A stretch of DNA of 52,860 nt from the IMG/VR virus record IMGVR_UViG_3300020044_001825, positions 1 through 52,860 of that record, one strand, 5' to 3'. Shown here in pieces: positions 1,191 through 33,645 of the stretch. Source of the stretch: a virus (Duplodnaviria > Caudoviricetes). Under the pieces are notes generated by a model. It was given only the letters and a program-made list of their open reading frames with translations. It did no database searches and had not been told where the DNA came from. Numbering within the stretch: the stretch's first letter is position 1; each line of letters starts with the position of its first letter. The position numbers and the translations under genes were made by a program.

Positions 1191-1344
1191 GAAACCAATC
1201 TGGGACAAAGCTAGACCTAAGAGCCTCGGCGAGAGCAAGACGCTGTCATCGGCGGCTAAGTCATCCGCTAAGGCGGCAGCAAAGAGCGCCGGACGCCCTT
1301 ACCCCAACCTCGTCGACAACATGAGAGCGGCGAGGAAGAAATGA
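1180..1344 (+). CDS. Small basic protein, 54 aa (MQPKKPIWDK...AGRPYPNLVDNMRAARKK)
   Basis: Translated by hand, not in the ORF track. It overlaps the terL stop and has an ATGA overlap with the next gene. Confidence 0.75.
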   Translation: MQPKKPIWDKARPKSLGESKTLSSAAKSSAKAAAKSAGRPYPNLVDNMRAARKK

Positions 1345-4300
1345 CTGACCGCGTTGACAAGGACAGCCTGCCGCTGAATCAACCACGGCGCACACCGAGC
1401 CATCCTACGAAGTCACACATCGTGAAGACGAAGGTAGACGGCAAGGAGAAGATTATCCGCTTCGGTGAGCAGGGCGCGAGCACAGCAGGCAAGCCCAAGG
1501 AGGGCGAGTCCGACCGCATGAAGGCTAAGCGAGCCTCGTTCAAGTCACGTCACGCAAAGAACATTGCTAAGGGTCCGAGTAGCCCAGCGTATTGGGCAAA
1601 CAAGGTGAAGTGGGCAGATGGCGGGTTTGTCAAGACGAATTACTACGATGGCGGTTCAATGCGCGCACAGCCGCAGAACGCCGCGTTGGGTTCTATTGCG
1701 GAGTTCTTGAAGCAGACTTACTCGCCACGGCGCACGCAGCAGATGCAGGGGACGATGGAGTTCCTCGGTGTACCGGCGCTAGCTCGTACTGCTGAGCGCT
1801 TGAGCTACGGGCAACCGATCACCAACATCAACAAGGCTAACGTCCCCCTGCTGCCCGATGATACTGCTGAAGCGGCGATGTTGGTCGCCCCGCCGTTAGC
1901 GAGCATTGCTAAGCGCGTGGGCACCAACCTCGTGCAGACCGCGCCTGCCGTTGCCCGCGACATTGTGCAGAACGTAACTTCACCTCTGAAGTCTTACGCT
2001 GTGAAGCCGAAGGGTGGCAACTGGCAACCGCCGCAGGGTTCAAGAGACAGCGTTACTATGTCGGTAAACCCCATCAAGCGTAACCCTGAAGTCATGAGCG
2101 GCGATATGATCAACCAAGCCGCTGGTGAAGACCTCTGGTCAAAAATGGTGGATCTGGGTCCTAGTGCTTATAATTCTCCTGTCCCGTGGCTAAAAGAAAA
2201 CAGACCTGACGTCTTAGAAAAGCTCTACGGCGAAGACAGATTAGCGCTCAACAAGTGGCTTGACACTAAGCTCGAAAAGTACATCCGCAACGACATGGGC
2301 ACACCGGACGACCCGATCAGGCTTGCGCACGAGGAAGGGTTCTCGCACATTCCTGGTGAAGCGGAAGAACTCGGCATGTGGCTACCTGAAGACGTAGCCG
2401 CTATGCGTGTTAAAGCGGGTTACCCCGAGGAAGGGTTCGCCGTCAAGAAACACGCAGACGCGGGTTATCCTGAGAACATGGAAGTTAACTCTCGCAAAGC
2501 TGAGATGTGGGAAGCTCTTTCGGACGCCGAGATCACCGCCACCCCTGCGCGGGAATTTCAAGAGCGGTTCCGTATGGCGCGTGAAATGCCCAACTTTGTG
2601 AGTAATGGTAAGCAAGAAATTGCGATAGCGGAGCGTAATCCTTGGATTGAAAAGCTCGCCCCAGAGACTCCGATTTACAAGATTGACAGACCTATGGATC
2701 TCAATGAGAACCTCGGGTTCAATCACATGGCTGACGAGATTCAGAACATGCTTGACCCCGAGTCAGGTTTGCCCGCCGCGTTACGCTTGACACCTCAGCA
2801 GCTTGACAAGGTGACGATGAAGCAGATGGTGGAGAAGGTTGACGCTGTCAACAAGTGGCGCTCCGAGGAAGCAGCCAAGGCTGAGCTGGGCGACATGATG
2901 GGTAACCTGACCGCCACACCGAGAATGCAGATACCTGATACGCAACTTTCGTTCGTCAAAGAACCAGGAATGACTTGGGTTGATATTCCGGCGACTGTTG
3001 ACGAGTCGGCTATGAAGCTCTGCACGACGATCGGCAAACAAGCCGGTTGGTGTACGCAAGGTGAAAGTCTCGCCAAGGCTTACGGCTCAGGCGACCGCCG
3101 CCTCGCCACATTGCTCGATGCTGAGGGTCGTCCGCACGCACAGGCGATGACCGATTATTCGCCAGAAGGTAAGATGTTTTCTAACCCCTTCAATCGTTTG
3201 TCGGACAGCACACAAGCTGAGTTGCTGAAAGAGGTGCAGGCTGTGACGGGTATTGAAGGTTGGTCGTCCCAAGGCAAAGCGTTCGAAAGACAGAAGCAAG
3301 TTCTTAACGAGCTGATGCAGCGCCCAGAGATACAAGCTCAACTCAACGACTTTCCAGAACCGCCTAAAAATATTGTAGAGCTGAAGCCGGTTGAGAATAC
3401 TTTTAACAGCGAACGCGCCCGTGAATACGTGAAGCGCGACCCTCAGTACAAAGCTAAGATCACCGACTCGGTGCTTAAGTTTTTGAACACTGGCGAGTGG
3501 GGTAGAGTTAACGATCTTGACCATTACGACATCGTTGACTTGAAAGATTCAAACAGTCTGATGAGATATGTCAATGATCTTTTCCCTGATGATTTTAAAA
3601 AGGGTAAAGCGCTTTTTTACGAAGCCGTTGGCCAATCACCAAACGCGCCGCGCTTTATGTCTCGTAGTCAGTTCCGCGAGTTTGTTGATCCTAGCTTAGG
3701 TAGAGAAGGCTACGCCGAAGGCGGCTCAGTCACGCGTGCTGGTGAGGGCTTACCCGACCCGACGCTTATGAACCTGAGACTTTACTCTGAGACCGTGGCG
3801 CAGGAGATGTTCCCCAACGAGCGCGACAACGCCAAGCGCGATGCCGCACGACACATGCTCGCCTCGGCGCTCGCTGCGCAGAAGACCACTCCAGGGATTG
3901 CAGACTTCTTAGGCAAAGCGTACGAGTTCAAGGAAGCCCCCTTCCGCACCGCCGGTCACTGGATGGGTCTGAGCGAGCCGCGCTCTGACTACCCGACCGA
4001 CGTACACAACAACGCGCTCGGCATTCAGCTGGGCAAGGACACCCGCTCGCTGCAGGAGTTGTTGGACTCCGTAGAGCGTGAAGCTAAGCGCGGCACGCCC
4101 GCCACTCAAAAGGGTCGCGCCTCGTTGAAGCCTGACACAGTCAAAGCCACGCGTTACGCCGAGGGCGGCTCAGTGTCTTACGACCCGTCACGCATTGAGC
4201 AAATCATGAGCAGCATCAGCGCCCCGCAGAATTATGCCGAGGGCGGTTCAGCGCGAGTACCTACCAACTTGCACCCTGACGTAGAAGAAGCGTTGAAGGC

Positions 4301-4793
4301 GGGTCGTATTACGCCCAATCAGGCTCGGTGGATGAGCAACCTCGCAAACACTCCAGGCAACCCTGAGATTGGCACTGCCGGTATTCGCGATGGTGTGTCT
4401 GAGAAAATGATGAACTACATGAAGGCGGTTCGCGCCGGTGAGTACACGAGACCGCATTGGATGGAGCCCATCCCCAAAGAAGTGAAGATGCCTAAGTGGT
4501 TCAGCGGTAGCGTTGACTTAGACCGAGAAGGTTTGAGGCAACTTGACAAGATTCCTGGTCTGACCAAGCAGGCTTTCAAGGCGAGCGAATACTCAAACAC
4601 GTATCCCGTGGGTGCTGGCGATCTCAGCTACTACCGCGAGTTGCTACAAGGGTTAGAGAAAGACCCGACGTACCAACCCTACCTTGATGAGATCGCGAAA
4701 GTAAAACAACGTAACCCGAAATTTGCCGAGGGCGGCAGTGTGTCGGTGTACGACTCCGGTCGCGTAGATGCGATCGTTAACCAGTTTATGTGA
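1341..4793 (+). CDS. 1150-aa modular protein between terL and portal, with domains separated by xxxGG motifs; probable virion-carried polyvalent protein
   Basis: Basic N-terminal domain (RASFKSRH...PAYWANKVKW), large middle region with GWCT, a DAARH...D.HNNALG domain, and six W/Y/F-A/Y-D/E-GG motifs. Confidence 0.7.
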   Translation: MTDRVDKDSLPLNQPRRTPSHPTKSHIVKTKVDGKEKIIRFGEQGASTAGKPKEGESDRMKAKRASFKSRHAKNIAKGPSSPAYWANKVKWADGGFVKTNYYDGGSMRAQPQNAALGSIAEFLKQTYSPRRTQQMQGTMEFLGVPALARTAERLSYGQPITNINKANVPLLPDDTAEAAMLVAPPLASIAKRVGTNLVQTAPAVARDIVQNVTSPLKSYAVKPKGGNWQPPQGSRDSVTMSVNPIKRNPEVMSGDMINQAAGEDLWSKMVDLGPSAYNSPVPWLKENRPDVLEKLYGEDRLALNKWLDTKLEKYIRNDMGTPDDPIRLAHEEGFSHIPGEAEELGMWLPEDVAAMRVKAGYPEEGFAVKKHADAGYPENMEVNSRKAEMWEALSDAEITATPAREFQERFRMAREMPNFVSNGKQEIAIAERNPWIEKLAPETPIYKIDRPMDLNENLGFNHMADEIQNMLDPESGLPAALRLTPQQLDKVTMKQMVEKVDAVNKWRSEEAAKAELGDMMGNLTATPRMQIPDTQLSFVKEPGMTWVDIPATVDESAMKLCTTIGKQAGWCTQGESLAKAYGSGDRRLATLLDAEGRPHAQAMTDYSPEGKMFSNPFNRLSDSTQAELLKEVQAVTGIEGWSSQGKAFERQKQVLNELMQRPEIQAQLNDFPEPPKNIVELKPVENTFNSERAREYVKRDPQYKAKITDSVLKFLNTGEWGRVNDLDHYDIVDLKDSNSLMRYVNDLFPDDFKKGKALFYEAVGQSPNAPRFMSRSQFREFVDPSLGREGYAEGGSVTRAGEGLPDPTLMNLRLYSETVAQEMFPNERDNAKRDAARHMLASALAAQKTTPGIADFLGKAYEFKEAPFRTAGHWMGLSEPRSDYPTDVHNNALGIQLGKDTRSLQELLDSVEREAKRGTPATQKGRASLKPDTVKATRYAEGGSVSYDPSRIEQIMSSISAPQNYAEGGSARVPTNLHPDVEEALKAGRITPNQARWMSNLANTPGNPEIGTAGIRDGVSEKMMNYMKAVRAGEYTRPHWMEPIPKEVKMPKWFSGSVDLDREGLRQLDKIPGLTKQAFKASEYSNTYPVGAGDLSYYRELLQGLEKDPTYQPYLDEIAKVKQRNPKFAEGGSVSVYDSGRVDAIVNQFM

Positions 4794-4801
4794 GGTGAGT
4801 A

Positions 4802-7294
4802 ATGGCTATTGAAAGAATGGAAGACGACCTGCCCGAAGGCGAGACAGTTCAGCTTGAGGACGTCGACAACGAGGTAGAAGACACCGAAGACGGCGGGGCA
4901 ATCATTCGTGAGAAGAATGAGGAAGACCTCGCCGACAAGCTCGCCCATTTTGCCAATATCGTTGACGAGGTCGATCAAGACCTGCTCAAGACCGCCATTA
5001 GCGACCTTGTGGAAAAGATCGGCAACGACAAAGAGGCTCGTGAGAAGCGCGACAAGCAGTACGAGGAGGGCTTGCGTCGTACGGGCTTAGGTGATGATGC
5101 ACCAGGAGGCGCTCAGTTCACCGGCGCAAACAAGGTCGTGCACCCGATGCTCGTCGAGGCATGCGTGGACTTCTCTGCCCGCTTCATGAAGGAGGTCTTC
5201 CCGCCTAGTGGTCCCGTCAAGAGCAAGATCCTCGGCGAGCGGGACAAGTCTAAGATTCAGAAAGCAGAGCGTAAAGCCGAGTTCATGAACTGGCAGACGA
5301 CTGAGCAGATGGTGGAGTTCCGCGGAGAGCTTGAGCAGTTGAGCACGCAGCTCCCGCTCGGCGGCGGTCAGTACATGAAGTTCATGTGGAACCCGTTGCA
5401 CCGCCGCCCCTGTGCTGAGTTCATCGCTATTGATGACATCTACCTGCCGTTCGCGGCGACCAACTTCTACACCGCCGAGCGTAAGACGCACGTACAGTAC
5501 ATCACGAAGTTTGAGTACCAGCGCCGCGTCAAGTCAGGTATGTACATTGACGTTGACTTGGGTATGCCGGAAGATCCCGAGTTCAGCAAGTCCACTCAGG
5601 CTAACGACAAGATTGAGGGACGCAAAGACCTGAGCTACAACGAAGACGGCTTACGCACGATCTTTGAAGTTTACACGTACCTTGACTTCGGGGATGGTCC
5701 GGAGCCTTATATTCTGAGCATTGACAAGACGACTAACCTCGGCTTGGGGTTGTACCGTAACTGGGAACCTGATGACCCGCGCCAGCTTGAGCTAGATTGG
5801 ATTGTGGAGTTCCCGTTTGTGCCTTGGCGTGGCGCGTACCCCATCGGTCTGACGCACATGATTGGCGGCTTGAGCGGCGCAGCCACCGGCGCACTCCGCG
5901 CCCTCCTCGACTCGGCTCACATTCAGAACGTGCCCACGCTGCTCAAGCTCAAAGGGGGACCAGGAGGCCAGACGCTGAACGTCCAACCGACAGAAGTGGT
6001 TGAGATGGAGGGTGGGGCGCTCATCGATGACGTGCGCAAGCTGGCAATGCCACTGCCGTTTAACGGTCCCAGCCCAACTTTGTTCTCGCTTCTGGGTTTC
6101 CTAGTAGACGCAGGCAAGGGCGTGGTGCAAACGTCCTTTGAGAAGCTGTCTGACCAGAACCCTAACCAGCCTGTAGGCACAACCATGGCGCTCATTGAGC
6201 AGGGCATGGTGGTGTTTTCGTCAATTCACAGCCGTTTGCATGGCTCGATGGCGCGTTGCTTCAAGATTTTGCACCGCATCAACAGCGCATACCTGACGAC
6301 TGAGGACATTGAGGCACAATCTGCTGGTCTTGAAATTGATCCGTCTGACTTTGACGGTCCGATGGACATCATTCCGGTCAGCGACCCCGCAATTTTCAGC
6401 GAAACCCAGCGTTTTGCGCAAACTCAGGCAATCATGCAGCGTGCACAAGCCATGCCGCAGATGTATGACGCACGCAAAGTTGAGGAAATGTTCCTCCGCA
6501 ACATGAAAGTGCCTGCGAATGAGGTGCTGCAGCCGTTGCCAGGAAGCGAGGACATGGATCCGGTGAGCGAGAACGTCGCAGCCGCCATGGGACGTCCAAT
6601 TTACGTGCTCCCGTCGCAAGATCACATGGCGCACTTCATGACGCACATCCCTTTCCTGAAGTCGCCGCTGTTCGGGTCAAATCCCGCCATCGCAAAGACG
6701 TATTTGTACCCGATGGCGACGCATTTGCGTGATCACCTGCTCAATTACTACCTAGTCGAAGCACACAACGCTGTTGACAAGGCACAGCGTGAGGAGTTGA
6801 TTCCTGAAGAAGCCGAAGATCAGGTCAAAGTCATCTTAGAAGTGCAGAAGTTCATCGAGGCACAACTCGGTAGCTTCGGTCAAGAGCTGGCGCAGATTGA
6901 TCAAGCCGCTCAGCAGTTCAAACCCCAGCCACCTATGCCGCCTGACAAGAGCATGGAGGTCGCCCAGCTCAACGCGCAAGTCCAAGGCAAGGCGCTGGAG
7001 CAGCGTATGCAGATTGACCAAGCTAAGTTGCAAATCGAGCAGCAGAAGATGCAGACACAGCAGCAGCTTGAAGCGACTAAGTTGGCTGCTGAGCAACAAG
7101 CCGAGTCTGAGCGCATGCAGACTGAGCAGATGAGACAACAAGCCGAAAACGAACGCACCGCCGCTGATCTTGAGACCCGCGAGCGCATGAACACGGCTGA
7201 CAACGACACCGCGAAACTGCTTGCCGCTGCCGAAATGGCTACGGGTGAGAAGGTCGCAGTGAGCACTGGAACTGGTATTAACCCTAACCCTTGA
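4802..7294 (+). CDS. Portal protein
   Basis: 830 aa between terL and the head genes. VHPMLVEACVDF and GAYPIGLTHMIGGL motifs, with a Q-rich coiled-coil C-terminus like P22-type portals. Confidence 0.85.
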   Translation: MAIERMEDDLPEGETVQLEDVDNEVEDTEDGGAIIREKNEEDLADKLAHFANIVDEVDQDLLKTAISDLVEKIGNDKEAREKRDKQYEEGLRRTGLGDDAPGGAQFTGANKVVHPMLVEACVDFSARFMKEVFPPSGPVKSKILGERDKSKIQKAERKAEFMNWQTTEQMVEFRGELEQLSTQLPLGGGQYMKFMWNPLHRRPCAEFIAIDDIYLPFAATNFYTAERKTHVQYITKFEYQRRVKSGMYIDVDLGMPEDPEFSKSTQANDKIEGRKDLSYNEDGLRTIFEVYTYLDFGDGPEPYILSIDKTTNLGLGLYRNWEPDDPRQLELDWIVEFPFVPWRGAYPIGLTHMIGGLSGAATGALRALLDSAHIQNVPTLLKLKGGPGGQTLNVQPTEVVEMEGGALIDDVRKLAMPLPFNGPSPTLFSLLGFLVDAGKGVVQTSFEKLSDQNPNQPVGTTMALIEQGMVVFSSIHSRLHGSMARCFKILHRINSAYLTTEDIEAQSAGLEIDPSDFDGPMDIIPVSDPAIFSETQRFAQTQAIMQRAQAMPQMYDARKVEEMFLRNMKVPANEVLQPLPGSEDMDPVSENVAAAMGRPIYVLPSQDHMAHFMTHIPFLKSPLFGSNPAIAKTYLYPMATHLRDHLLNYYLVEAHNAVDKAQREELIPEEAEDQVKVILEVQKFIEAQLGSFGQELAQIDQAAQQFKPQPPMPPDKSMEVAQLNAQVQGKALEQRMQIDQAKLQIEQQKMQTQQQLEATKLAAEQQAESERMQTEQMRQQAENERTAADLETRERMNTADNDTAKLLAAAEMATGEKVAVSTGTGINPNP

Positions 7295-7442: not shown

Positions 7443-7636
7443 ACATTGAGTCTCAACTTCTGAATCGTCTGAAAGCAGAACAGCAGTCATTTGCTGTTAC
7501 CGCTTTGAGACGACCCCAGACTCGCGATACTTTTGAGTACGGGTATCGCGTGGGAATGGTTGCTGGTTATGAGGCAGCAATCGACGTACTTTTAAACCTT
7601 CTAGACCAGGAGAAAAACCTTGACAATGACCTATGA
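7439..7636 (+). CDS. Hypothetical protein, 65 aa
   Basis: Translationally coupled ORF between portal and groES. Confidence 0.7.
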   Translation: MNIESQLLNRLKAEQQSFAVTALRRPQTRDTFEYGYRVGMVAGYEAAIDVLLNLLDQEKNLDNDL

Positions 7637-8033
7637 GGACGCAATGGCGGAGGCTTTCCCAGCAGTAGATGCTGGAATTCAGCCTTTCGGGAGCCGTGTT
7701 CTGATTCAGATTCGCACACCGAAAAAGAAATCAGCTGGTGGCATTATTATTGACATCGCGGGTACTAATGATACCGAGAAGTGGAACACTCAGATTGGCA
7801 AAGTGGTTGCCTTGGGTCCGCTGGCTTTCAAGAACCGCAATGACATGAAGACGTGGCCAGAGGGTGAGTGGTGCAAAGCCGGTGAATACGTTCGCGTGGC
7901 TAAGTACGGCGGTGATCGTTGGGAAGTCAAGATTCCTGACACTGACGGATCTGCTATGTTTGTGATTTTTAACGACTTGGACATCATCGGGCAGGTAACT
8001 GGCGACCCGTTGGCAATCCGAGCATTCATCTGA
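7626..8033 (+). CDS. groES: GroES/Cpn10-like co-chaperonin
   Basis: IQPFGSRVLI, SAGGIII mobile loop, GKVVALGP, KYGG, DIIG. The ATG at 7626 is preferred to the TTG at 7620. Confidence 0.85.
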   Translation: MTYEDAMAEAFPAVDAGIQPFGSRVLIQIRTPKKKSAGGIIIDIAGTNDTEKWNTQIGKVVALGPLAFKNRNDMKTWPEGEWCKAGEYVRVAKYGGDRWEVKIPDTDGSAMFVIFNDLDIIGQVTGDPLAIRAFI

Positions 8034-8046: not shown

Positions 8047-9003
8047 ATGGCTAATGTGATGAAAGAAGACGACGAACGCGGTGGTGAAGAAATCATCATC
8101 GTCGAAGACGAGTCAAAACTAACCGACAGACAGGAAGAGCAGGACGATGATTCAGATGACAGCGGTGATGAACGAACCGCGTCCTCAGCAGCCGAAGACG
8201 GCAATGACGACGAGCGAGAGGCGATACGTGAGCGACGCCGCCTTGAAAAGCTCGAGCGTAAAGACCGCCGCGATCAAGCCATCAAGCGCGACAAACTCGA
8301 GCTGGACTTCCTGCGTAAACGAAATGATGACCTTGAGCGCCGCGTATCTCTTCAAGAGCACCGAGCGCATCAAGTAGACCTCGGCACGTACGACGCACAC
8401 ATTGCTAGCGCGGCGAAGGAAGCCGAGATGGCGGAGCGTGTCATCGCTAAGGCGGTGGAGGCGGGCAACGGCAAGGACGTAGCTCAGGCGCTCAAGTACC
8501 GCGATCAAGCTATGCAGAAAGTGCAGCAGCTCCAGTACGCTAAGCAACAAGCCGCCCAACAGCGCCCCCAGCCACAGGGTCAGCAGCTTGATGACATGAC
8601 CATGCATTACGCTAATGAGTTCATCAAAGAGAATCCATGGTACGACTCACAGGGTCGTGATGAAGATTCTGCAATTGTCATCGCTATTGACCAATCATTG
8701 GCCAAGGACGGTTACAATCCACAGTCAGAGGAATACTGGGATGAATTGCGCAAGCGTGCTGCCCGCCGATTGCCTGAAAAGTTCAAGAATGAACGCCGCG
8801 ACTCTAGGGAGGAACGCACTCCTCGCGGTGGTCCCGCAGTGGGTTCCGGACGTGAGCACGCACCGGCTTCTACGCGTAAAGAAATTTACGTCAGTCCCGA
8901 GCGCAAGCAGGCATTGATTGAGGCTGGCGTGTGGGATGATCCAGTGTTGCGCATGAAATACGTCAAGCGCTACGCCGAGTACGACCGTACTAACAAAGCG
9001 TGA
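8047..9003 (+). CDS. Putative capsid scaffolding protein
   Basis: Acidic N-terminus and long coiled coil, located upstream of the capsid genes. AAGGAG RBS. Confidence 0.65.
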   Translation: MANVMKEDDERGGEEIIIVEDESKLTDRQEEQDDDSDDSGDERTASSAAEDGNDDEREAIRERRRLEKLERKDRRDQAIKRDKLELDFLRKRNDDLERRVSLQEHRAHQVDLGTYDAHIASAAKEAEMAERVIAKAVEAGNGKDVAQALKYRDQAMQKVQQLQYAKQQAAQQRPQPQGQQLDDMTMHYANEFIKENPWYDSQGRDEDSAIVIAIDQSLAKDGYNPQSEEYWDELRKRAARRLPEKFKNERRDSREERTPRGGPAVGSGREHAPASTRKEIYVSPERKQALIEAGVWDDPVLRMKYVKRYAEYDRTNKA

Positions 9004-10243: not shown

Positions 10244-11158
10244 ATGGCTACCCCAATGCGTAGTACGGACTTTAGATCCGTAGTTGAGCCTATCCTCAAC
10301 GAAGTGTTCGATGGTGTTTATGACCAACGTGCTGACGAGTGGAAGATGGTTTTCCGCGAGCAAAAAGGCATTCCTCGCAACTACCATGAAGAACCCGTTC
10401 TTTATGGTTTTGGCGCAGCGCCTGAACTGCCCGACGGTATGGCTGTTTCTTACCAGTCTGGTGGCGTGTTGTTCTTGCAGCGTTACCTCTACAAAGTCTA
10501 CGGTCTCGCATTCAGCTTGACCAAAGTCCTCGTAGAAGACGGCGACCACATCCGTATCGGTCAGACCTACGCCAAGCACTTGGCGCAGTCTTTGATCGAG
10601 ACTAAGGAAACCCTCTCTGCTAACATCTTGAATCGTGCCTTCAACGGCGCGTATGTTGGCGGTGATGGCGTGTCGTTGACTAACACTGCCCACCCCATTG
10701 TTAACGGCACGTTCAGCAATCAGCTGACCACTCCCGCTAACTTGTCACAGACCTCCCTTGAGCAGATGCTGATTCAGATTCGCAACGCCGTTGACAACAA
10801 CGGTAAGCGTATCCGTCTGACACCTAAAAAGATCGTTTCCGGTCCTTCCAACGTGTTCCAAGCTGAAGTCCTCTTGAAGAGCGTCTTGCGCACCGGCACA
10901 GCCGACAACGACATCAACCCAGTTAAGTCCATGGGCTTGCTGGCTGATGGCCAAGCTAACTTGTCTCGTATCACTTCATCTACCGCATGGTGGGTGCAGA
11001 CCGACGCGCCAGAAGGCTTGAAGTTGTTGATGCGTCGTGGCTTGGAGAAGTCTATGGAAGGTGACTTCGAGACTGACTCAATGCGCTACAAGGCTACTGA
11101 GCGTTACACAGTGGGTTGGACTGACCCACGTGGCGTGTACGGTACTGCTGGCGTATAA
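10244..11158 (+). CDS. Major capsid protein (Mu gpT-like, HK97 fold)
   Basis: 304 aa. YGLAFSLTKVLVED, GDGVSL..TAHP, LSQTSLE, GDFETDSMRYKATERY..GWTDPRG. Followed by a terminator. Confidence 0.88.
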   Translation: MATPMRSTDFRSVVEPILNEVFDGVYDQRADEWKMVFREQKGIPRNYHEEPVLYGFGAAPELPDGMAVSYQSGGVLFLQRYLYKVYGLAFSLTKVLVEDGDHIRIGQTYAKHLAQSLIETKETLSANILNRAFNGAYVGGDGVSLTNTAHPIVNGTFSNQLTTPANLSQTSLEQMLIQIRNAVDNNGKRIRLTPKKIVSGPSNVFQAEVLLKSVLRTGTADNDINPVKSMGLLADGQANLSRITSSTAWWVQTDAPEGLKLLMRRGLEKSMEGDFETDSMRYKATERYTVGWTDPRGVYGTAGV

Positions 11159-11159
11159 G

Positions 11160-12232: not shown

Positions 12233-12628
12233 ATGACAGTCGGAAAAGTTAAAGATTTCAATTTTTCATCAGGCGGTATGGCTAAAGGCTACGCTAAAGG
12301 TGGTGAGGCTCGTGTCAAAGACACTATTCGCAATGAGCGCCAAGAGTTGAACCGCGTTTCCGCTAAGCAGCGTGACGCGGGTCAAGAGATGTCTCGTGTT
12401 CGTTCTGAAATGCGCTATGACAAGAACGAACTCAAAGGTATGGCTAAAGGCGGCGCTATGAATCAAGGCGGTCGCGAGATGTTGAAAAATCGCGGTGCTT
12501 TGGGTGTTGTCGACAATAAGAATCCTGGTGAAACTCGCATGCACACCGCGCCTAAGTTGCCTGGTGCGAAAATGATGATGAACAAAGGCGGTATGGCTAT
12601 GTCCAAGGGTAAAGGTAAAAACTGCTAA
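12233..12628 (+). CDS. Basic low-complexity protein, 131 aa, with five xxxGG motifs
   Basis: ATG at 12233 after AAGGGG RBS. Motifs FSSGG, YAKGG, MAKGG, MNQGG, MNKGG. Confidence 0.75.
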   Translation: MTVGKVKDFNFSSGGMAKGYAKGGEARVKDTIRNERQELNRVSAKQRDAGQEMSRVRSEMRYDKNELKGMAKGGAMNQGGREMLKNRGALGVVDNKNPGETRMHTAPKLPGAKMMMNKGGMAMSKGKGKNC

Positions 12629-23272: not shown

Positions 23273-23905
23273 ATGAGCTATAGCATGACGTACGACAGTT
23301 TGCTGGTGGACGTGCGTCGCTACCTTGAACGTGGTTTCACGCAAGAGAGCGACCAAATCGTTTACGACCAGCTACCTCGCCTAATTACATTAGGTGAGCG
23401 CCGTATCGCCCGCGAACTTAAAATTCAGGGGTTCATCCGCGCCGTGTCAACCCCTCTGTCAATCGGCGTTGCTGTGTATTTGAAGCCCGACCGATGGCGC
23501 GACACAATCAGCATGACGGTCAACGGCTCGCCTATTTTCGCTCGTTCCTACGAGTATTGCCGCAGTTATTGGCCTAACGAAGCCCAGACCGCTGCTCCGC
23601 AGTTTTACGCCGACTACGACTATCAGCACTGGCTGATTACCCCGACACCCATAGCAGCGCAGACCCTTGAAATTCTGTACTACGAGCAGCCCGCCCTGCT
23701 AGGTGATGACTTACAAACGAACTGGCTTACCGAGTATGCACCTGATGTGCTGCTGTACGCAACCTTGCTCGAGGCGACTCCGTTCCTCAAGAAAGACGAG
23801 CGTATTCAGACTTGGCAAGTCATGTATGACCGTGCGGCTCAGGCGCTGAATGGCGAAGACTTGAAGCGTATCATGGATCGCACAGCTAACAGGAGTGAAG
23901 CGTAA
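23273..23905 (+). CDS. Putative tail adaptor protein (P22 gp4/tubular A-like)
   Basis: ITLGERRIARELK, PTP, TNWLTEYAPDVLLYATLLEATPFLK pattern common in podovirus adaptors. Confidence 0.65.
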   Translation: MSYSMTYDSLLVDVRRYLERGFTQESDQIVYDQLPRLITLGERRIARELKIQGFIRAVSTPLSIGVAVYLKPDRWRDTISMTVNGSPIFARSYEYCRSYWPNEAQTAAPQFYADYDYQHWLITPTPIAAQTLEILYYEQPALLGDDLQTNWLTEYAPDVLLYATLLEATPFLKKDERIQTWQVMYDRAAQALNGEDLKRIMDRTANRSEA

Positions 23906-27178: not shown

Positions 27179-28990
27179 ATGAATAAGCAGCAGATTCTTG
27201 AAATAGCAAAGAACGACCCTCGGTTCTCAAAAGCGGTTTTAACGCTTGAGAACGAAATCGGCGACATGCCGGTCACGGGCGAGGGCTTAGACGAATTAGT
27301 CAAGATGCTCGAGTTTGCGCTCAATAATCCTGAAAGCTACGCAGAGATCGTTGCTTCTGCTGTTCAAGACGACATGATTGAGGAGGGTGACCTGCCCGCG
27401 CAATTTGACCCCGTAGCAATCATATCCCTGCTCGTACTGATGTACGGTATGCAAGAGCGCTTGAAGCAAAAAGGTTTTGCTAAAGGTGGTCTGGCTTCGT
27501 TAGGTCGTCACGGCGACACGATGCTGGCGCACATCAATCCGCGTGAAGCTGCAATGCTCAAGCGTATGGGTGGTTCGGGAACAATTAATCCAAACACCGG
27601 ACTACCTGAATATAAGTTCAGTTTTAAGAAACTCTTAGCTGTCGCGTTACCTATCGCGCTGAATTTTATCGTCCCTGGAGCTGGTGCTGCTATCGGCGCA
27701 TCAATGGGTTTGACGGGTACAGCAGCCGCTATGGCGGGTAGCGCGATTATCGGCGGCGGTACTGCTGCTCTGACTGGCGGTGATCCGCTCAAAGGCGCTA
27801 TTCTGGGCGGCTTAGGAGGTGGCTTAGGTGAAGCCGTAGGTGGTGCTGCTAATAGCGCTTTAGGCTTAGATTTAGGCGCTGCCGGTCAAAACGTGCTCGG
27901 TAACGCGCTCGTAGGCGGCGGTATGGGTGCGGCTACTGGCCAAGGCTTCTTGAAAGGCGCGGCTTCAGGTGCGTTGGGAGCTTACGCCGGTCAACAGCTC
28001 GGTGACCTCACTGGTAACGCCGCCATAGGCGCGGGCGGTAAGCAGTTCAGCAACATGATCACTGCGGGCTATGATCCTAAGTCTGCCGTCATCGGTGGTG
28101 GCTTAGCCGGTCTAGCTAGTAGCATGTCAAAACCTGCTGAATCTAGCAGGATGGGGCTTAAACCCTCAGACGCTGTAGTTGAAGGTTTGAAGATGCCTAA
28201 AGGTAGCGATTACGCATACAGCGGCGTGCCTGAGGCGGGTTACGGTACTACAAATTTCATGACCGGAGAGACTGGCTATAAAGGTCCCGAAAACTTCTCC
28301 GTTGATTATTCTCTGACTAATCCAGCCGCGCCGGTAGCACCTAGCGGTTACGGTGCTCAAGAGATGGGCGGTGGGCTTTCATCGACCCCGCAGTCACCCC
28401 TTGCTCAACTCAAAACGACCACCCCAACCGCAAGCACAAGCAGCCCATTCTCAATGAAGAACGCTTTGATGGGCGCTACACTTTTGAGCAGCCTCACCAG
28501 CGCTCCTCCTCAGGTTCAACAGGCGGTCAACAAGATGCCTGCCGAGCAGCAAGAGTACTTCAACCGTCCCTCAATCGTCTGGGACTGGAACAAATTACAA
28601 AGTGACGCTAATGCTAACAACCAGAGCCTGAGTGAATACATGGCGCGGAGTTGGCCAAAAATCACTTCTGGCGCTTATAATATGCAACCAGCGACCACCC
28701 CCAAGCCTCCAGGCATGGCACAAGGTGGCGCTCTGTCAGCTGTTGCCCGATTCGCCCAAGGTGCGGGTTCTGGTCGAGCAGACACCATTGATGCTAAACT
28801 CTCAGATGGTGAATACGTGATTGACGCAGAAACAGTTGCAATGCTCGGCGACGGCTCCAATAAAGAGGGAGCTAAGCGCCTCGACGCTATGCGCGGAAAA
28901 ATCCGTTCACACAAAGGTAAAGCGCTGGCGAGGGGTAAGTTTAGCCCTAACGCTAAGTCACCTCTCAGCTATTTGAAAGGAGTTGCATAA
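27179..28990 (+). CDS. Putative internal virion/ejection protein
   Basis: GRHGDTMLAHINPREAAMLKRMGGSGTINPNTGLPEY domain, Gly/Ala-rich hydrophobic region, C-terminal GRADTIDAKLSDGEYVIDA domain. Confidence 0.65.
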   Translation: MNKQQILEIAKNDPRFSKAVLTLENEIGDMPVTGEGLDELVKMLEFALNNPESYAEIVASAVQDDMIEEGDLPAQFDPVAIISLLVLMYGMQERLKQKGFAKGGLASLGRHGDTMLAHINPREAAMLKRMGGSGTINPNTGLPEYKFSFKKLLAVALPIALNFIVPGAGAAIGASMGLTGTAAAMAGSAIIGGGTAALTGGDPLKGAILGGLGGGLGEAVGGAANSALGLDLGAAGQNVLGNALVGGGMGAATGQGFLKGAASGALGAYAGQQLGDLTGNAAIGAGGKQFSNMITAGYDPKSAVIGGGLAGLASSMSKPAESSRMGLKPSDAVVEGLKMPKGSDYAYSGVPEAGYGTTNFMTGETGYKGPENFSVDYSLTNPAAPVAPSGYGAQEMGGGLSSTPQSPLAQLKTTTPTASTSSPFSMKNALMGATLLSSLTSAPPQVQQAVNKMPAEQQEYFNRPSIVWDWNKLQSDANANNQSLSEYMARSWPKITSGAYNMQPATTPKPPGMAQGGALSAVARFAQGAGSGRADTIDAKLSDGEYVIDAETVAMLGDGSNKEGAKRLDAMRGKIRSHKGKALARGKFSPNAKSPLSYLKGVA

Positions 28991-30759
28991 TGGGCAGCTT
29001 ATTCCAAGGGTCGCCGCAGACCGCTACTTCTTACACCACGTCATCCACTGAGACCCCGAAGTGGATGCAGGATGCGATTTATAACCAAATTCAGGTCGCC
29101 CAGAACATTGCTAATACGCCTTACGAGTCGTATAACATGCCTACCGTGGCTGAATTGTCACCGCTGCAACAGCAAGCGTACAAGCAGGTTCAAGGTAATC
29201 AAGGTTTCTATCAGGGAGACCTTGACAAAGCCCAGTCTGGTATGTACGAATTCGGCAGCAAAGGTACAGCTGACGCTTTGAAACAAGCGCAAAGTCAGTA
29301 TTTGAGCCCAGACTTAGCTGGTAGAAATCTGAACGCCGGTCAATATTATTTTGATCAAGCCGGTCAGTCAGACATCGTAGGAGCAGGTCAACCCGCGTTT
29401 GCAAGGGCGATGGGTATGGACGCTACGGGCGCGGCGCAACCTTCTTTGTCTCAGGCGGGTGCGTCTGCGGGCAACATTCTAGGCGCGGCTCAACCTTACA
29501 TGAATCAGGCTGGCGCTGCTGCGGGTAACATCACCGGCGCGGCTCAACCTTATTTGAACCTAGCCGGTCAATCGGCGGGTAATATCTACAACGCTGCTCA
29601 ACCTTTTATGGGTCAGGCGGGTCAGACAACCGCACAAGCGCTTTCAGACCGCGCTTTGAACGCGGCTAACCCATACCTGTCAGCGGCTTCTCAGTCTGGT
29701 GCGGGCGGTGTGAGCCAATACATGTCGCCGTACCAAAGCGGCGTCATGGACGTTATTGCTAAGCAGGCAGGTCGCAATCTCAGCGAGAACCTTTTACCTA
29801 ACGTGTCTGATGCGTTCATCAAAGCTGGCCAGTTCGGCGGTACACGCATGGGTGAGTTCGGTAGCCGTGCCCTGCGCGATACTCAAGAAGCCGTGTTGAA
29901 CCAACAAGCTCAACTGGCTAACCAAGGCTACGGACAGGCTCTCGGCGCTTCTCAGGCTGATCTCGCACGTCAAGCGCAGTTAGCTGGTACGGTCGGTAGC
30001 ATTTCCGGCGCAGACCTCTCTCGCGTGCTTCAGGGTGGCGCTCAGTATGGTAACCTCGCACAGACTCAAGGTCAGTTGGCAGGTCAACAGGCTTCAGCTC
30101 TAGCTAACCTCGGTCAGACCCAAGGTCAACTCGCAGGGCAACAGGCTTCTACATTAGCTAACCTCGGACAGACCGCTGGTCAGCTGACAGGTCAACAGGC
30201 TTCGGCTTTGACCAACCTCGGCCAGACCACCGGTCAGTTGACAAGCCAGCAGCAACAAAACCTGACTAACCTCGGTCAGACACAAGGTCAGCTTACCGCC
30301 CAACAAATGTCTCAGATGGCTAACCTTGGTCAGATGCAAACCGCTGCGGGTCAGGCTCAACAACAGTTCGGTCTCACCGCTGGTCAGGCTGCACAAGGCG
30401 CTCAAGCTCAAGATTACCAGCGCCAGATGTCGGCGTTGCAGAACTTCGGTAATATGCAACAGCAAGAGCAAGCCCTGCGTTCAGCTGATGTGGCGGCGCT
30501 TGAAGGTGCGGGCGCGGCTCAGCAGACCCAAGCTCAGCAGCAACTTAACGCAGCTAAGGCTCAGTATGAAGCGCAGAAGTTGTACCCTAGACAACAACTT
30601 GATTTCTTAAGCACTCAAATTCGCGGTATGGCTCCAATCACGCCGCAGGTCACAACTAATCAAGGTACAACAACCGGCGCTACGTATTCACCTTCACCGC
30701 TGTCTCAGCTGGCGACGGGTCTTTATACGTACAAAGGTTTAGATAACCTTGGTCGCTAA
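28990..30759 (+). CDS. Putative DNA pilot/ejection protein, Gln/Gly-rich
   Basis: 18-aa repeats (AGNI.GAAQPY; NLGQTQGQLAGQQASAL), AGQFGGTR motif, SPLSQLATG C-terminus. Confidence 0.65.
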   Translation: MGSLFQGSPQTATSYTTSSTETPKWMQDAIYNQIQVAQNIANTPYESYNMPTVAELSPLQQQAYKQVQGNQGFYQGDLDKAQSGMYEFGSKGTADALKQAQSQYLSPDLAGRNLNAGQYYFDQAGQSDIVGAGQPAFARAMGMDATGAAQPSLSQAGASAGNILGAAQPYMNQAGAAAGNITGAAQPYLNLAGQSAGNIYNAAQPFMGQAGQTTAQALSDRALNAANPYLSAASQSGAGGVSQYMSPYQSGVMDVIAKQAGRNLSENLLPNVSDAFIKAGQFGGTRMGEFGSRALRDTQEAVLNQQAQLANQGYGQALGASQADLARQAQLAGTVGSISGADLSRVLQGGAQYGNLAQTQGQLAGQQASALANLGQTQGQLAGQQASTLANLGQTAGQLTGQQASALTNLGQTTGQLTSQQQQNLTNLGQTQGQLTAQQMSQMANLGQMQTAAGQAQQQFGLTAGQAAQGAQAQDYQRQMSALQNFGNMQQQEQALRSADVAALEGAGAAQQTQAQQQLNAAKAQYEAQKLYPRQQLDFLSTQIRGMAPITPQVTTNQGTTTGATYSPSPLSQLATGLYTYKGLDNLGR

Positions 30760-30768
30760 GGAGTAATT

Positions 30769-33645
30769 ATGGGTTTTGAACTCGACAGACTTATGAAGCA
30801 GTACGGTGTGAGTACTGCCGGTGTGGTTAACTATTCTGGTGCTACCCCAGAAGACACAGCCGCGTATGATGCGTACAAGAAAGAATATGAGACGCGCCTG
30901 CAAAACACTCCGATGATGATGCAGTCACAGTATCAGACAGGCTACGAGCCTAAGTCTGCGGGACTGAAGTCCGCCACTGACACTATCGGTGTTGACCAGT
31001 TCAATAAAAATATTCAAAACTGGGCGAACCTAAACCCCACAGCCTTTTCAAGCGATATCAACGCGTATGCGCAGAAGTACGGCATTAGCGGTCAAGACAT
31101 TTTCAACGCGACTCAAAACCGCTGGGGTAATATACTCCGAGCGCCTAAGTTCAACACGCCCGCTCCCGTCGTACCGCCGGTGGTTCCTCCGGTCGTAGCT
31201 CCTGTCACACCGCCAATTGTTCCCCCTATTGTACCACCTGTCGTACCGCCGGTAGTGCCTCCCGTAGTACCGCCAGTAGTACCGCCAGTAGTGCCGCCAG
31301 TAGTGCCGCCTGTCGTGCCAAGTCCTGATGACGACTTTCCTCCGACTATTCCTCCAGTTGTTCCGACTCCTGATGACGACTTTCCACCAACTATTCCTCC
31401 GGTGGTGCCAAGTCCTGACGATGACTTTCCTCCTACGCCTATTCCTCCAGTAGTGTTACCAAGCGTAGATGATGATTTTCCTCCTACGCCTATACCCACA
31501 CCGGTCATGCCTAGCCCAGACGAAGATTTTCCGTCAACAATTAGAACAGGTACTGTGGATATAGAAGAAGTTGACCCTAATGTCATTATCCCCGACACTG
31601 TTGGACCAAACAGAGCGGGTGGCGGTGATCTGCCTGAAGAGTTTGACAAGTATTTGGTTCCAGAAACCCCTGCGGTAACCCCCAGCGCCCCCGCCGTAGT
31701 TGACACTCCGGCGGTGATTGACACCCCTATGGTTGTTGACACGCCTTTTGTAACTGTCGATTCACCAACCCCTGCTGATGACGGTACAACCGGTAGTATT
31801 CAAGACGCTATTAATTCTCTAGAGACTCCGTATGAAGTGCAGCCATGGGAAAATCTTGACAACTCCGGTGTTAATATCGGGTCAATGGCAGGTGACAACT
31901 CGCTCAACAGCGGTAACAACACTTACATCGGTGATGTAGCAGAGACGCCTGTAGGCTTGCCAGACGCATTTGGTTCATACCCGAGCGACTCAACATATAC
32001 CGGCGATGACGATTTCAGCAGCCCTGCAGAATTCACTAAACCTGATTATTTCGGCGGCGCTGATGATTTCAGTAACTACGGCGTAGGTGTTAGCGATTTC
32101 GGCGGTGGCGCAAGTGTTGCCGACGATTTCGGTAAGTACGGACTAGGTGTTAGCGACTTCGGTGGCGGCGGTGGCGGGGGTGGTAAATTCTTTGACGATC
32201 AAAGTATGTCTGTTTCTGCGTATGCTCAAGGTGGTCCCGTGAAAACACATTATCAAACCGCCGGTCGCGTTCAGTTACCTAGCGGCTATGAAACCTCTGA
32301 AGACGAAGCAGATTTTCTAGCTCGTCAAGAGCGTGACCGCGTACCGGTTGAAATTAACGCGATCAATATGGCTAACCCCCCGCCGCCAGTCATTTCAGAA
32401 CCTATGGCAGCTCCAGCTCCGGCTGCACCCTTGACAGCGGTGGCTTTGAACGCTGCTAAAGACGCCTCTGCGCCTGTTGCTCCGGCAGTAATGGCAGCGC
32501 CTAAGCCTATCGCACCTCCAGCGCCGGTCGGTGGCGAGCGTATGGCTAACATTCAAGCCCTGCTCGCTGCGTATGGTCCGAAGGACGGTGCTTACGGCGC
32601 TGAACTCAAAGCCGCTCGTGCGACCGCTAAAGCGGAGAGCGATGCTTTTGCTAAGCTGTTGTCAGATTCCATGAAGGCTCCAGAGGACGCAAAGAGTTCT
32701 AAGGCTGAGATGTACTTCCGGTTGGCGGCTGCTTTCGGCGCTCCCACTAAGACTGGCCACTTTGCTGAAAACCTCGGAATGGTCGGTAAAGAGCTTGGCG
32801 ATTACTCTAAGGAGCAACGCGCCTCTAGACAGCAGAAACTGGCTCTGGCTTTGAAAGGTCAAGAGATGAAGATGGGCGCAGCTAAGGAAGACCTCCGCAC
32901 CCTGCAAGCGCTGTCAGCTGAGGAAATGAAAGACAAGCGTACCATTGCGACTGAACTCATCAAAGACTTTATCAAGTCAGGTGAGCCTCAGTCTGCGGCT
33001 GGTAAGCAAGCTCTTGACGAAGGTCTCAAGCCAGGAACCCCTGAGTATCAGAAGCGTGTGGAAACTCTCGGTAATATGAATATTGAGAGTAAGCTGGCGC
33101 AGATTACTGCTTCCTTGGCAGGTGTGAGCACAGCTGCGGCTAATTTAGCCTTGGCGCAGGAAAAGTTCCAAAACCAGAAACAGCAACAGACTAAGCTGAG
33201 TCCGGCTGAAGTCACTATGAAAAAAGAAGCTGAAGACTTTATCGCTTCTAGCAAGCAATCTCTGCTTGATTTGAAACAGGCTTACGCGCTGAACCCGAAC
33301 TCGCTAGCTGGTGGCTGGTTGGAAAAAGGGCAGCAGTTCTTGAGTGAAGCGGCGGGTTCTAAAGACCCTGTGATTGTTAACACCCGTATCATTAACAACC
33401 TGCTCGGTTCTCAAGGTCTAGCTAAGCTGAAAGCAACCTTTGGCGGTGCGCCGACTGAAGGTGAACGCGCGATCTTGATGGAGCTTGAAGGTATCGGCTC
33501 TAAAACTAGAGAAGAACGCGCTGCGATCATCAAGCGCACCTACAAAGTTTTGCAAGACCGTATGGCTCGCGAACAAGCTCGCTTGGATCAAATCACTTCC
33601 GGCGCTTACCGTACGACCACCCCACTTGAAGAAGGGAATGAGTAA
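30769..33645 (+). CDS. Putative internal virion/ejection protein with a Pro/Asp-rich N-terminal half
   Basis: PPVV and PSPDDDFPPT repeats, then a helical C-terminal half with GAPTEGER. Confidence 0.65.
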   Translation: MGFELDRLMKQYGVSTAGVVNYSGATPEDTAAYDAYKKEYETRLQNTPMMMQSQYQTGYEPKSAGLKSATDTIGVDQFNKNIQNWANLNPTAFSSDINAYAQKYGISGQDIFNATQNRWGNILRAPKFNTPAPVVPPVVPPVVAPVTPPIVPPIVPPVVPPVVPPVVPPVVPPVVPPVVPPVVPSPDDDFPPTIPPVVPTPDDDFPPTIPPVVPSPDDDFPPTPIPPVVLPSVDDDFPPTPIPTPVMPSPDEDFPSTIRTGTVDIEEVDPNVIIPDTVGPNRAGGGDLPEEFDKYLVPETPAVTPSAPAVVDTPAVIDTPMVVDTPFVTVDSPTPADDGTTGSIQDAINSLETPYEVQPWENLDNSGVNIGSMAGDNSLNSGNNTYIGDVAETPVGLPDAFGSYPSDSTYTGDDDFSSPAEFTKPDYFGGADDFSNYGVGVSDFGGGASVADDFGKYGLGVSDFGGGGGGGGKFFDDQSMSVSAYAQGGPVKTHYQTAGRVQLPSGYETSEDEADFLARQERDRVPVEINAINMANPPPPVISEPMAAPAPAAPLTAVALNAAKDASAPVAPAVMAAPKPIAPPAPVGGERMANIQALLAAYGPKDGAYGAELKAARATAKAESDAFAKLLSDSMKAPEDAKSSKAEMYFRLAAAFGAPTKTGHFAENLGMVGKELGDYSKEQRASRQQKLALALKGQEMKMGAAKEDLRTLQALSAEEMKDKRTIATELIKDFIKSGEPQSAAGKQALDEGLKPGTPEYQKRVETLGNMNIESKLAQITASLAGVSTAAANLALAQEKFQNQKQQQTKLSPAEVTMKKEAEDFIASSKQSLLDLKQAYALNPNSLAGGWLEKGQQFLSEAAGSKDPVIVNTRIINNLLGSQGLAKLKATFGGAPTEGERAILMELEGIGSKTREERAAIIKRTYKVLQDRMAREQARLDQITSGAYRTTTPLEEGNE
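31165..31540 (+). repeat. Coding tandem repeats: about 12 x PPVV (12 bp), then 5 x P(S/T)PDDDFPPT...
   Basis: Directly visible in DNA and protein; boundaries approximate. Confidence 0.85.

Follow-up and report, generated by a model that had tools for sequence, protein, structure and literature searches.

A short Ala-x-Gly-Gly motif at module boundaries of predicted cargo and ejection proteins in an uncultured podophage-like genome

A short motif shared by four late protein families

In this study we describe a short linear motif that recurs in four unrelated late proteins of a virus known from the IMG/VR record IMGVR_UViG_3300020044_001825 (Duplodnaviria; Caudoviricetes). The window, by which we mean the whole stretch of DNA that was analyzed, is the whole assembly, a contig of 52,860 bases that represents an almost complete podophage-like genome. 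A preliminary description of this sequence had listed 14 copies of a motif [YFWM]-x-x-G-G in late proteins, and all 14 were confirmed in frame. The carriers are encoded on the plus strand. The 1150-amino-acid (aa) protein at 1341-4793 holds six copies (WADGG at 1611, YYDGG at 1641, YAEGG at 3711, 4155 and 4233, FAEGG at 4722) and the 131-aa protein at 12233-12628 holds five (FSSGG at 12263, YAKGG at 12290, MAKGG at 12440, MNQGG at 12458, MNKGG at 12578), followed by the proteins at 27179-28990 (FAKGG at 27476, MAQGG at 28715) and at 30769-33645 (YAQGG at 32221). The two extended tandem forms reported at 1611-1655 and 32221-32265 are present as well. Ala follows the hydrophobic residue in 10 of the 14 copies, and 12 of them read A-x-G-G or N/S-x-G-G. 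All copies are internal or C-terminal, none being an N-terminal signal of ~10 residues.

To compare these numbers with chance we called 58 open reading frames (ORFs; 17,126 aa) in the window and used 2000 within-protein shuffles as controls. The narrow form [YFWM]A[DEKQ]GG was observed 10 times against a shuffled mean of 0.30, and not one of the 2000 shuffles reached the observed number. The regular expression that had been drawn up post hoc with the preliminary description gave 14 copies against 0.97 (0/2000), and the broad form [YFWM]xxGG 22 against 14.75, a number reached by 78 of the 2000 shuffles. The expected excess over shuffled sequence is therefore clear for the narrow form and weak for the broad one. 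The earlier statement that the motif is missing from portal, capsid and replication proteins likewise holds for the narrow form and has to be limited to it, because the broad form also hits the capsid protein (YQSGG at 10451) and several early proteins.

Relatives were taken from 160 IMG/VR loci, 80 around homologues of the portal protein and 80 around homologues of the protein encoded at 33645-35681. We called 2258 ORFs in them, labelled these by BLAST against the window proteins and counted [YFWM]AxGG on distinct ORFs. The 1341 family had 174 copies (3.6 in shuffled sequences), the 27179 family 85 (8.4), the 30769 family 71 (6.1) and the 12233 family 25 (0.4), so that the motif is conserved above shuffled levels and confined to the very families in which it had been noted. 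All other window families together had 14 copies against 30.8 in shuffles, and the late families outside the four had five against 25.7; this apparent depletion in other late families is suggestive only, because the sequences are related. Not one copy was found in 58,429 aa of the portal family, nor in the capsid and terminase families of the 160 loci. Among the better known genomes, the metagenome-assembled relatives DSL-LC04 and MW202545.1 are enriched in the motif at the same gene positions, and Caulobacter phage RW and Methylophilales phage Venkman are not. N-terminal copies occur in some relatives only, for example at residues 16, 39 and 55 in DSL-LC04. Nine of the 14 copies in other families, counted on distinct ORFs, go back to a single MALGG that is fixed in an early PD-(D/E)XK-like nuclease. 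In the window this MALGG lies at 37802 (ORF 37443-38279, minus strand), and before de-duplication it was present in 11 of 28 nuclease homologues; it probably belongs to that fold and is unrelated to the motif of the late proteins.

Positions that had not been used for selecting the copies are conserved too. In 359 distinct contexts, position -1 is G in 36% and K in 20%, and position +6 is V in 60% and A in 15%, with Val at +6 reaching 93% in the 1341 family. The extended motif can thus be written as [G/K]-Phi-A-x-G-G-x-[V/A], with Phi for the hydrophobic residue. Directly after Gly-Gly, Pro stands in ~7% of these contexts and Ser in 26%; autoproteolysis of the SEA-domain type between G and S was set aside, since it would call for Ser in more than this share of copies. 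The codons of the motif differ synonymously among copies, even within the window, and it is therefore the protein that is under selection; a DNA-level selection was set aside for this reason.

Position of the motif within its carriers

Judged by its sequence, the 1150-aa protein at 1341-4793 is a mosaic polyvalent cargo protein. Its gene occupies the slot between the terminase large subunit and the portal, and it was always found there, in the window as well as in relatives. Residues 11-91 match phrog_7595 (E 3.3e-34), residues 302-518 match a PcfJ-like protein of phage DSL-LC04 in tblastn, and residues 817-912 match DUF6973 with 23.6 bits, under the 27-bit cut-off. The corresponding genes of relatives encode 500-1743 aa with ART-PolyVal (E down to 1.7e-19), SLT (7.7e-28), PcfJ and DUF7178 domains in varying orders, and even those ORFs in the slot without a BLAST match to the window protein still hold two to six motif copies. 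Pfam domains of relatives are bracketed by the motif: in the locus L026 an ART domain at residues 727-853 lies between motifs at 672 and 863/871, and in L025 an ART domain at 1153-1305 lies between motifs at 1112 and 1315/1323. Like the polyvalent proteins of phages and conjugative elements (Iyer, Burroughs, Anand, de Souza and Aravind 2017, PMC5512222), the carriers found here are large mosaic multi-domain proteins whose genes lie beside those of the virion and whose domains include ART-PolyVal, SLT, PcfJ and LPD. Both class features, variable unrelated domains among relatives and a location among late genes, were found here, the window protein itself having only the PcfJ-like region and the sub-threshold DUF6973 match. 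Passages of that paper predict that polyvalent proteins are processed into separate domains and assign this to embedded MPTase domains; unlike in those proteins, no such domain was detected in the window.

Within the cargo protein the motif stands where its composition changes from one piece to another. The tandem unit WADGGFVKTNYYDGG (1611-1655) lies at a fusion junction after the phrog_7595 domain. Stand-alone phrog_7595 proteins (SIO1, CRP-207, S-EIVl) end in KVKW, exactly at the W of WADGG, and in relatives with a split gene the next ORF begins with MAE and lacks ADGG; hence the motif is present only where phrog_7595 is fused to further sequence. A YAEGG at residue 791 (3711-3725) precedes the DUF6973-like region, and homology to many relatives breaks off at residues 797-800. 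Further downstream a motif-helix-motif module, YAEGGSVSYDPSRIEQIMSSISAPQNYAEGG (residues 939-969; 4155-4247), is followed by the C-terminal module FAEGGSVSVYDSGRVDAIVNQFM (4722-4790). BLAST high-scoring segment pairs (HSPs) over residues 939-970 recur among otherwise unrelated proteins. When residues 925-1150 were used to seed a database search, 118 proteins came back, all of them metagenomic and together containing 404 motifs in 118,811 aa; a motif spacing of 26-27 aa occurs 51 times in these 118 homologues, tandem copies are also found 8-15 aa apart, and in 85 of the 118 the last motif begins 23-27 aa from the end. Among the 72 loci with an ORF upstream of the portal there are 41 distinct motif-bearing C-termini, 36 of which consist of the motif and a tail of 18-28 aa, the type being Phi-A-x-G-G-[SA]-V-x-x-Y-[DN]-P-x-x-[VI]-D-x-I-x-N-Q-F-M. 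A strict motif is missing from four upstream-of-portal ORFs, each of them truncated by the 5' end of its locus; the tails of two are degenerate but motif-like (SHGGSV, SKGGSV).

A conserved module of this kind might be an uncleaved docking element, i.e. a short strand or hairpin that pins the proteins to a conserved component of the virion. Portal, nozzle or hub channel, scaffold or capsid interior would be candidate partners, several copies would give avidity, and the amphipathic helix of the cargo protein would add contact. The multiple and tandem copies at distances of 8-15 and 26-27 aa point in this direction, as does the C-terminal motif-plus-helix module shared by unrelated cargo proteins, and the way in which small residues (A, G, G) alternate with hydrophobic anchors (Phi, V) suits a tight peptide-protein contact. 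The capsid targeting sequences of T4 and the cargo-loading peptides of encapsulins are precedents. Since it accounts well for the tandem copies and for the conserved helix at the C-terminus, docking is a serious rival to cleavage at the motif, to which we return below, even if we hold docking to be rather unlikely.

The protein at 27179-28990 (603 aa) is of the ejection type and would be an internal protein of the virion. It consists of an N-terminal domain, a first motif, a GDTMLAHINPRE module, a Gly-rich hydrophobic middle part, a second motif and a C-terminal domain; residues 489-584 match the tape measure profile phrog_6090 (E 2.1e-5). Both motif sites are fixed in position among homologues. 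Site 1, FAKGG at residue 100 (27476-27490), is followed by GDTxLAHINPxE. In an alignment of the 150 best database representatives of the family the module [LIVM]AH[LIVM].P.E is present in 75, and in 58 of these 75 xAxGG stands no more than 40 aa upstream (with F in 37, M in 10, Y in 8 and L in 3). Site 2, MAQGG at residue 513 (28715-28729), lies directly before the conserved C-terminal domain and is followed by DTIxAxLSDGEYV. Here the two Gly are kept in 149 and 146 of the 150 rows and Ala in 127, and position 0 is less strict (M, K, L, Y, A, F). Matches to Caulobacter phages in tblastn start at residue 513. A GE[YF]V or GExG[PT]E module follows the motif at both sites of this protein, and it does not do so in the cargo, small basic and 30769 proteins. 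With a profile of the last 115 residues we found 12,302 clusters at 50% identity (E <= 1e-3).

Structure prediction with AlphaFold2 (AF2) gave no usable fold for cargo residues 925-1150 (34 sequences; mean predicted local distance difference test score, pLDDT, 44.6) and a pLDDT of 66.5 for the C-terminal domain of the 27179 protein (150 sequences). A Foldseek search of the latter against the PDB had no hit at E <= 0.001, and a sequence search of solved structures revealed no relative of any of the four motif proteins. The motif falls into low-confidence coil in both models, with helices after it, and this would be in keeping with a linear motif that is exposed. The coil, together with the position between domains, might also be taken for a generic flexible hinge without a specific reader, in which Gly-Gly keeps modules independent for packing, unfolding and threading; the carriers are indeed proteins expected to traverse a narrow channel. 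Unlike generic linkers, however, the motif keeps an invariant Ala, a conserved aromatic residue and Val across clusters at <=50% identity, it is scarce in other late proteins including long multi-domain ones, and a hinge leaves the conserved C-terminal copy 22 aa from the end unexplained. We consider a mere hinge improbable.

The second large carrier among the internal proteins, at 30769-33645 (958 aa), has a variable, proline-rich acidic N-terminal half, then the motif, and then a conserved C-terminal half of ~470 aa. Its tandem unit YAQGGPVKTHYQTAG begins at residue 485 (32221-32265), and a unit Phi-A-x-G-G-x-V-[KR]-T-H-Y-Q-T-A-G recurs in relatives. In this family the last motif lies at a median of 471 aa from the C-terminus (interquartile range 436-489) within total lengths of 517-1372 aa, the N-terminal half being extremely variable in length. 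For 15 of the 54 homologues, the Y of YAQGG is the very residue at which the best HSP begins. The N-terminal half contains a run of PPVV and PPVVP repeats followed by SPDDDFPPT units (31150-31560, residues ~130-260). In tblastn against cultured phages the 30769 protein had no match.

The small basic protein at 12233-12628 is rich in Lys and Met and packs its five copies into 131 aa. Its family shares the Lys/Met-rich composition and three to eight copies, also in the positional equivalents of more distant relatives. Members end in a conserved Cys (KNC, SNC or KKC), as does the 449-aa equivalent of MW202545.1 (AKC).

The neighbours of these carriers lack the motif. Between the 27179 and 30769 proteins lies a 589-aa Gln/Ala/Gly-rich protein with NLGQTQGQLAGQQAS repeats (28990-30759), with zero copies in 27,239 aa of homologues. 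The motif-free protein at 33645-35681 (plus strand; phrog_5880) follows on the 30769 protein, and its family has two copies in 48,119 aa against 6.0 expected. It is possibly a P22 gp16-like ejection protein, for which PF26808 in the ESM Atlas is a lead only (rank 25, score 0.95); tblastn against cultured phages gave one weak match.

The coincidence of motifs with homology breakpoints, which had been proposed as a test, was borne out by the HSP ends of the cargo protein, by the motif-flanked Pfam domains of relatives and by the 15 of 54 HSP starts in the 30769 family. In the 1150-aa protein 254 of 394 internal HSP ends fall within 12 aa of a motif centre, where 11.7% would be expected, a clustering that is partly trivial because the motif module itself is the shared piece. 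This supports and strengthens the view that domain boundaries of several unrelated late proteins are marked by the motif. It might be argued that the coding stretch of the motif merely serves as microhomology for the exchange of cassettes and has no role in the protein, as has been proposed for the junction motifs of polymorphic toxins (VENN, Rhs). The cargo gene is highly mosaic with breakpoints clustering at motifs, and GGC encodes the first Gly in 69% of copies, compared with 41% in the background. However, codons vary synonymously as described, the motif is equally conserved at the fixed, non-mosaic sites of the 27179 family in 150 divergent clusters, five copies lie in one protein of 131 aa, and 15-24 degenerate nucleotides are very short for homology-driven exchange. 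A recombination joint therefore appears highly improbable to us, and both this reading and the hinge explain less than cleavage or docking.

Tape measure proteins and the case for a cleavable junction

To look for the motif outside these families, we ran a degenerate DNA pattern encoding G-Y-A-E-G-G-[S/T..]-V against IMG/VR and took 89 in-frame hits. Single hits of this pattern may be due to chance; 46 ORFs among the 89 hits carry at least two strict copies, and 27 of these 46 have no BLAST match to the window proteins. Of seven multi-copy ORFs tested, L216 and L242 match TMP_3, L186 matches Tape_meas_lam_C and L188 matches the polyvalent-associated LPD23 domain. The tape measure ORFs L216, L242 and L186 carry one to five motif copies each, and in L242 and L186 the motif stands ahead of GE[YF]V or GERGPE modules, like the sites of the 27179 protein. 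The only significant bridge between the two groups is phrog_6090, which is matched by the C-terminal domain of the 27179 protein and by L242.

The tape measure proteins of T5 and lambda are known to be cleaved. Passages of Linares et al. (2023, PMC10038345) localize the cleavage of T5 pb2 into pb2* and pb2C by mass spectrometry after R1127, between a hydrophobic stretch and a metallopeptidase-type motif. Residues 1124-1134 of pb2 read FVPR↓AEGGMMY (the arrow marks the cut), and A.GG occurs only twice in its 1219 aa. The layout of the 27179 protein, with hydrophobic middle, motif and conserved C-terminal domain, resembles that of pb2, whose conserved C-terminal module stays bound to the tail tip. 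T5 differs from the window in having Arg and not an aromatic residue or Met at position 0 and Met at +6, and in being a siphovirus. Lambda gpH has HFATGG at 733 and RGYATGGYV at 778, the two copies flanking a GEFVF module, and L186 retains both of them despite diverged flanks. They lie in the region from which, according to passages of a 2025 paper on Ur-lambda (PMC12617516), gpH loses ~14 kDa, a Gly-rich stretch near the C-terminus, to yield gpH* of ~78 kDa and gpHC; the site and the catalyst of this cleavage are given there as unknown. The motif match in lambda is for this reason a prediction. A third case comes from the P22 record, where the host enzyme OpdA trims the ejection protein gp7 (L169, 9369-10058) after residue 20 and leaves KGGKGG as the new N-terminus. 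This is a different register, yet a precedent for a host enzyme that trims an ejection protein.

Taken together, we tentatively favour the reading that the motif is a processing site used after assembly, which would free ejected modules from conserved anchor segments. The motif carriers probably leave the virion via the tail channel. In this scheme [G/K]-Phi-A-x-G-G-x-[V/A/L] would be a short linear signal of ejected proteins and an endoproteolytic site, carried in the podophage clade by the polyvalent cargo protein, the two ejection-type internal proteins and the small basic protein, and in long-tailed phages by tape measure proteins. It would sit in flexible stretches at module joints, just before conserved C-terminal segments. 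The assembly anchor might be the conserved stretch downstream of the final motif, which measures 22 aa in the cargo protein, 86 aa in the 27179 and ~470 aa in the 30769 protein. A cut at the motif, placed between Phi and Ala on the model of T5 pb2, would release the modules upstream of it, which could then be ejected and act independently in the host. The protease could be autocatalytic, a host enzyme or an unrecognized phage enzyme. For this phage we infer the cleavage itself as well as its register, the anchor and the protease. The cleavage reading is supported because the motif persists when surrounding domains are replaced, because each of the three large proteins has a conserved segment behind its last motif, and because the mapped cut of T5 pb2 falls directly before A-E-G-G. 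The preliminary description had also considered cleavage, after Gly-Gly; the T5 site and the lambda region lend this indirect support, with the register shifted to before Ala. Its other suggestion, a tag that targets proteins to the procapsid, is weakened, since the motif is shared by tape measure proteins, which reside in the tail tube and are not loaded into capsids, and a loading tag for the capsid only has become less likely.

Several observations weigh against cleavage at the motif. T5 is a single mapped case, picked out after the fact, and its R-A-E-G-G-M-M fits only a relaxed x-A-x-G-G. A cut of lambda gpH at F733↓A734 would give computed fragments of 79.8 and 12.5 kDa, against the ~78 kDa reported for gpH*, and the reported sizes are gel estimates that fit other sites too. 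Comparison by hhalign of the window domain with the T5 and lambda domains was not significant (0.9% and 0.6% probability, respectively), and an ad-hoc hidden Markov model of the module had no significant hit in T5 and reached no better than a domain E of ~2 in lambda gpH. The connection to T5 and lambda is thus one of motif and local architecture. The motif is absent from P2 gpT and Mu gp42, and HK97 gp16 offers no more than FAKGAG (in FAFAKGAG before AEAGPEAIMPL). Whole proteomes contain no copy in P22, one in T7 and none in Mu. Because of this scarcity and the absence from P2 gpT and Mu gp42, the motif is not universal. According to PMC10611076, the clade's only named relative, DSL-LC04, is a metagenome-assembled genome. 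A binding element would explain equally well the tandem copies at distances of 8-15 aa and the conserved stretch of 22 aa behind the last copy.

The search for a protease adds to these points. Scans with Pfam and PHROGs, covering ~52 of the 58 ORFs, all except a few short ones of 60-90 aa, found no peptidase family, in agreement with the earlier remark that no prohead protease is recognizable in the window; this includes T4-type prohead proteases (S77, S78, S80, S49, U9, U35) as well as clan CE and C39 domains. It had been suggested that the protease could lie outside the window. The contig starts inside the terminase large subunit gene (1-1190) and ends inside the primase gene (51609-52860), and the genome is therefore not closed. 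According to close relatives ~2.7 kb are absent from it, namely the C-terminal part of the primase, a 209-aa ORF, an Sf6-like small terminase and the N-terminal part of the terminase. The room for a protease outside the window thus shrinks to this stretch, and the ORFs of relatives that fill it belong to no peptidase family either. In the lambda record the tail protein K is annotated as a C40-family peptidase, a lead for lambda only, as no counterpart was seen in the window.

Docking, the serious rival, draws on the same tape measure proteins, since passages on T5 and lambda report that the C-terminal pieces of both tape measure proteins bind the tail-tip hub. Its capsid or scaffold version leaves the occurrence of the motif in tape measure proteins, outside capsids, unexplained. 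Caulobacter phage RW has the same head module of portal, GroES, scaffold and capsid protein without enrichment of the motif, and in both AF2 models the motif region lies outside any confidently folded unit. A predicted complex of the portal with the last 56 residues of the cargo protein scored 0.00 in a run without controls and weighs neither way. For the 9077 protein the ESM Atlas gave no look-alikes.

Short signals with a comparable function are known from other systems. In T4 the capsid targeting sequences stand at the N-terminus and function in the head, and a dedicated prohead protease cuts them at L/I-x-E. The motif resembles them as a short reusable peptide on internal ejected proteins that would be tied to cleavage, and differs in being internal or C-terminal, in occurring in tail proteins as well and in having no recognizable prohead protease beside it. 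The C-terminal peptide of the cargo protein is reminiscent of an encapsulin-like loading peptide, and here the occurrence in tape measure proteins argues against a role in a shell only. Gly-Gly sites are used by the adenovirus protease ((M/L/I)xGG↓x), which also cuts small basic core proteins, by the African swine fever virus protease pS273R (GG↓x) and in C39 double-glycine leaders. As in these sites, a hydrophobic residue stands a few positions before Gly-Gly in presumed virion precursors; in the window it lies five and not four positions before the second Gly, and the T5 precedent is cut before Ala.

The preliminary description knew of no report of the motif, and our literature searches, made in open-access text without supplements, found none either. 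YAEGG, FAEGG, YADGG, YAKGG, FAKGG, MAKGG and FADGG gave nothing on phages there, the literature on ART-PolyVal and on PcfJ in phage virions held nothing relevant, and that on tape measure cleavage sites yielded only the T5 paper. The searched passages of PMC5512222 mention neither the motif code nor the C-terminal module, and the words linker, glycine and PcfJ are absent from them. That tape measure and polyvalent proteins are processed is known in principle, and a shared sequence code for it would be new.

If the cleavage reading holds, it would provide a sequence rule for where polyvalent cargo and ejection proteins come apart, and effector modules of a very abundant uncultured phage group could be delimited from sequence alone. 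Long-tailed and short-tailed phages would then be linked by a short motif common to the tape measure proteins of the former and the ejection proteins of the latter. One might go further and suppose that Phi↓A-x-G-G is a widespread processing code of tape measure proteins such as T5 pb2 and lambda gpH and of internal, polyvalent and ejection proteins in an abundant set of uncultured podophages, a code which one common activity recognizes and which makes the anchor cleavable, whether by autocatalysis of the adjacent conserved module, by a ubiquitous host enzyme or by an unrecognized virion protease. This generalization we regard as doubtful. If true, it predicts that gpH of lambda is cut at F733↓A734 or, alternatively, at Y778↓A779; the 50-year-old question of gpH cleavage would become testable with two candidate bonds, and the mapped T5 site would be rationalized. 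Should the cleavage reading fail, the motif is still a clean marker of module boundaries.

Genome layout and further observations

The late genes of the window lie on the plus strand. The C-terminal part of the terminase large subunit (3-1190) is followed by the 1150-aa cargo protein, the portal (4802-7294), a GroES-like co-chaperonin (7620-8033; Cpn10, E 1.2e-8), an acidic coiled-coil scaffold-like protein of 318 aa (8047-9003), a Mu gpT-like major capsid protein (10244-11158) and the 131-aa basic protein. SU10-type adaptors, a tailspike-like protein, an endolysin and a holin are also encoded among the late genes, and four large internal proteins occupy 27179-35681. Early and replication genes are on the minus strand, with helicase and primase at the 3' end.

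The co-chaperonin gene sits between those of the portal and the scaffold, and it is kept in DSL-LC04, MW202545.1 and Caulobacter phage RW. In the mobile loop the sequence is KSAGGIII. The idea that the motif mimics this loop in binding GroEL was set aside, as the register differs. Two ORFs match the SU10 adaptor family, one strongly (23273-23905, E 6.9e-26) and one weakly (12719-13699, E 1.1e-4, below the cut-off). A DUF5856 protein is encoded at 16218-16592 amid the late structural genes, and its PHROG match is annotated as a starvation-inducible transcriptional regulator.

A cluster for thymidine hypermodification was found on the minus strand at 42024-46106. It comprises a dNTP (deoxynucleoside triphosphate)-hydrolase-like ORF (42024-42512), a thymidylate-synthase-like protein (42576-43613), a 5-hydroxymethyldeoxyuridine (5-hmdU) DNA kinase (43614-44534; PF18723, E 2e-45), a second, weakly kinase-like ORF (44527-45108) and an amino acid:DNA transferase (45105-46106; PF18724, E 1e-17). 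From these genes the DNA of the phage probably contains a hypermodified thymine.

For the major capsid protein at least 7,998 clusters at 90% identity exist, and the homologues found for its alignment are 92-98% identical. The portal protein is long (830 aa), and the PHROG portal profile matches only its residues 171-581. It has a Gln/Ala-rich C-terminal extension of ~130 residues (~700-830), which may form a P22-like barrel.

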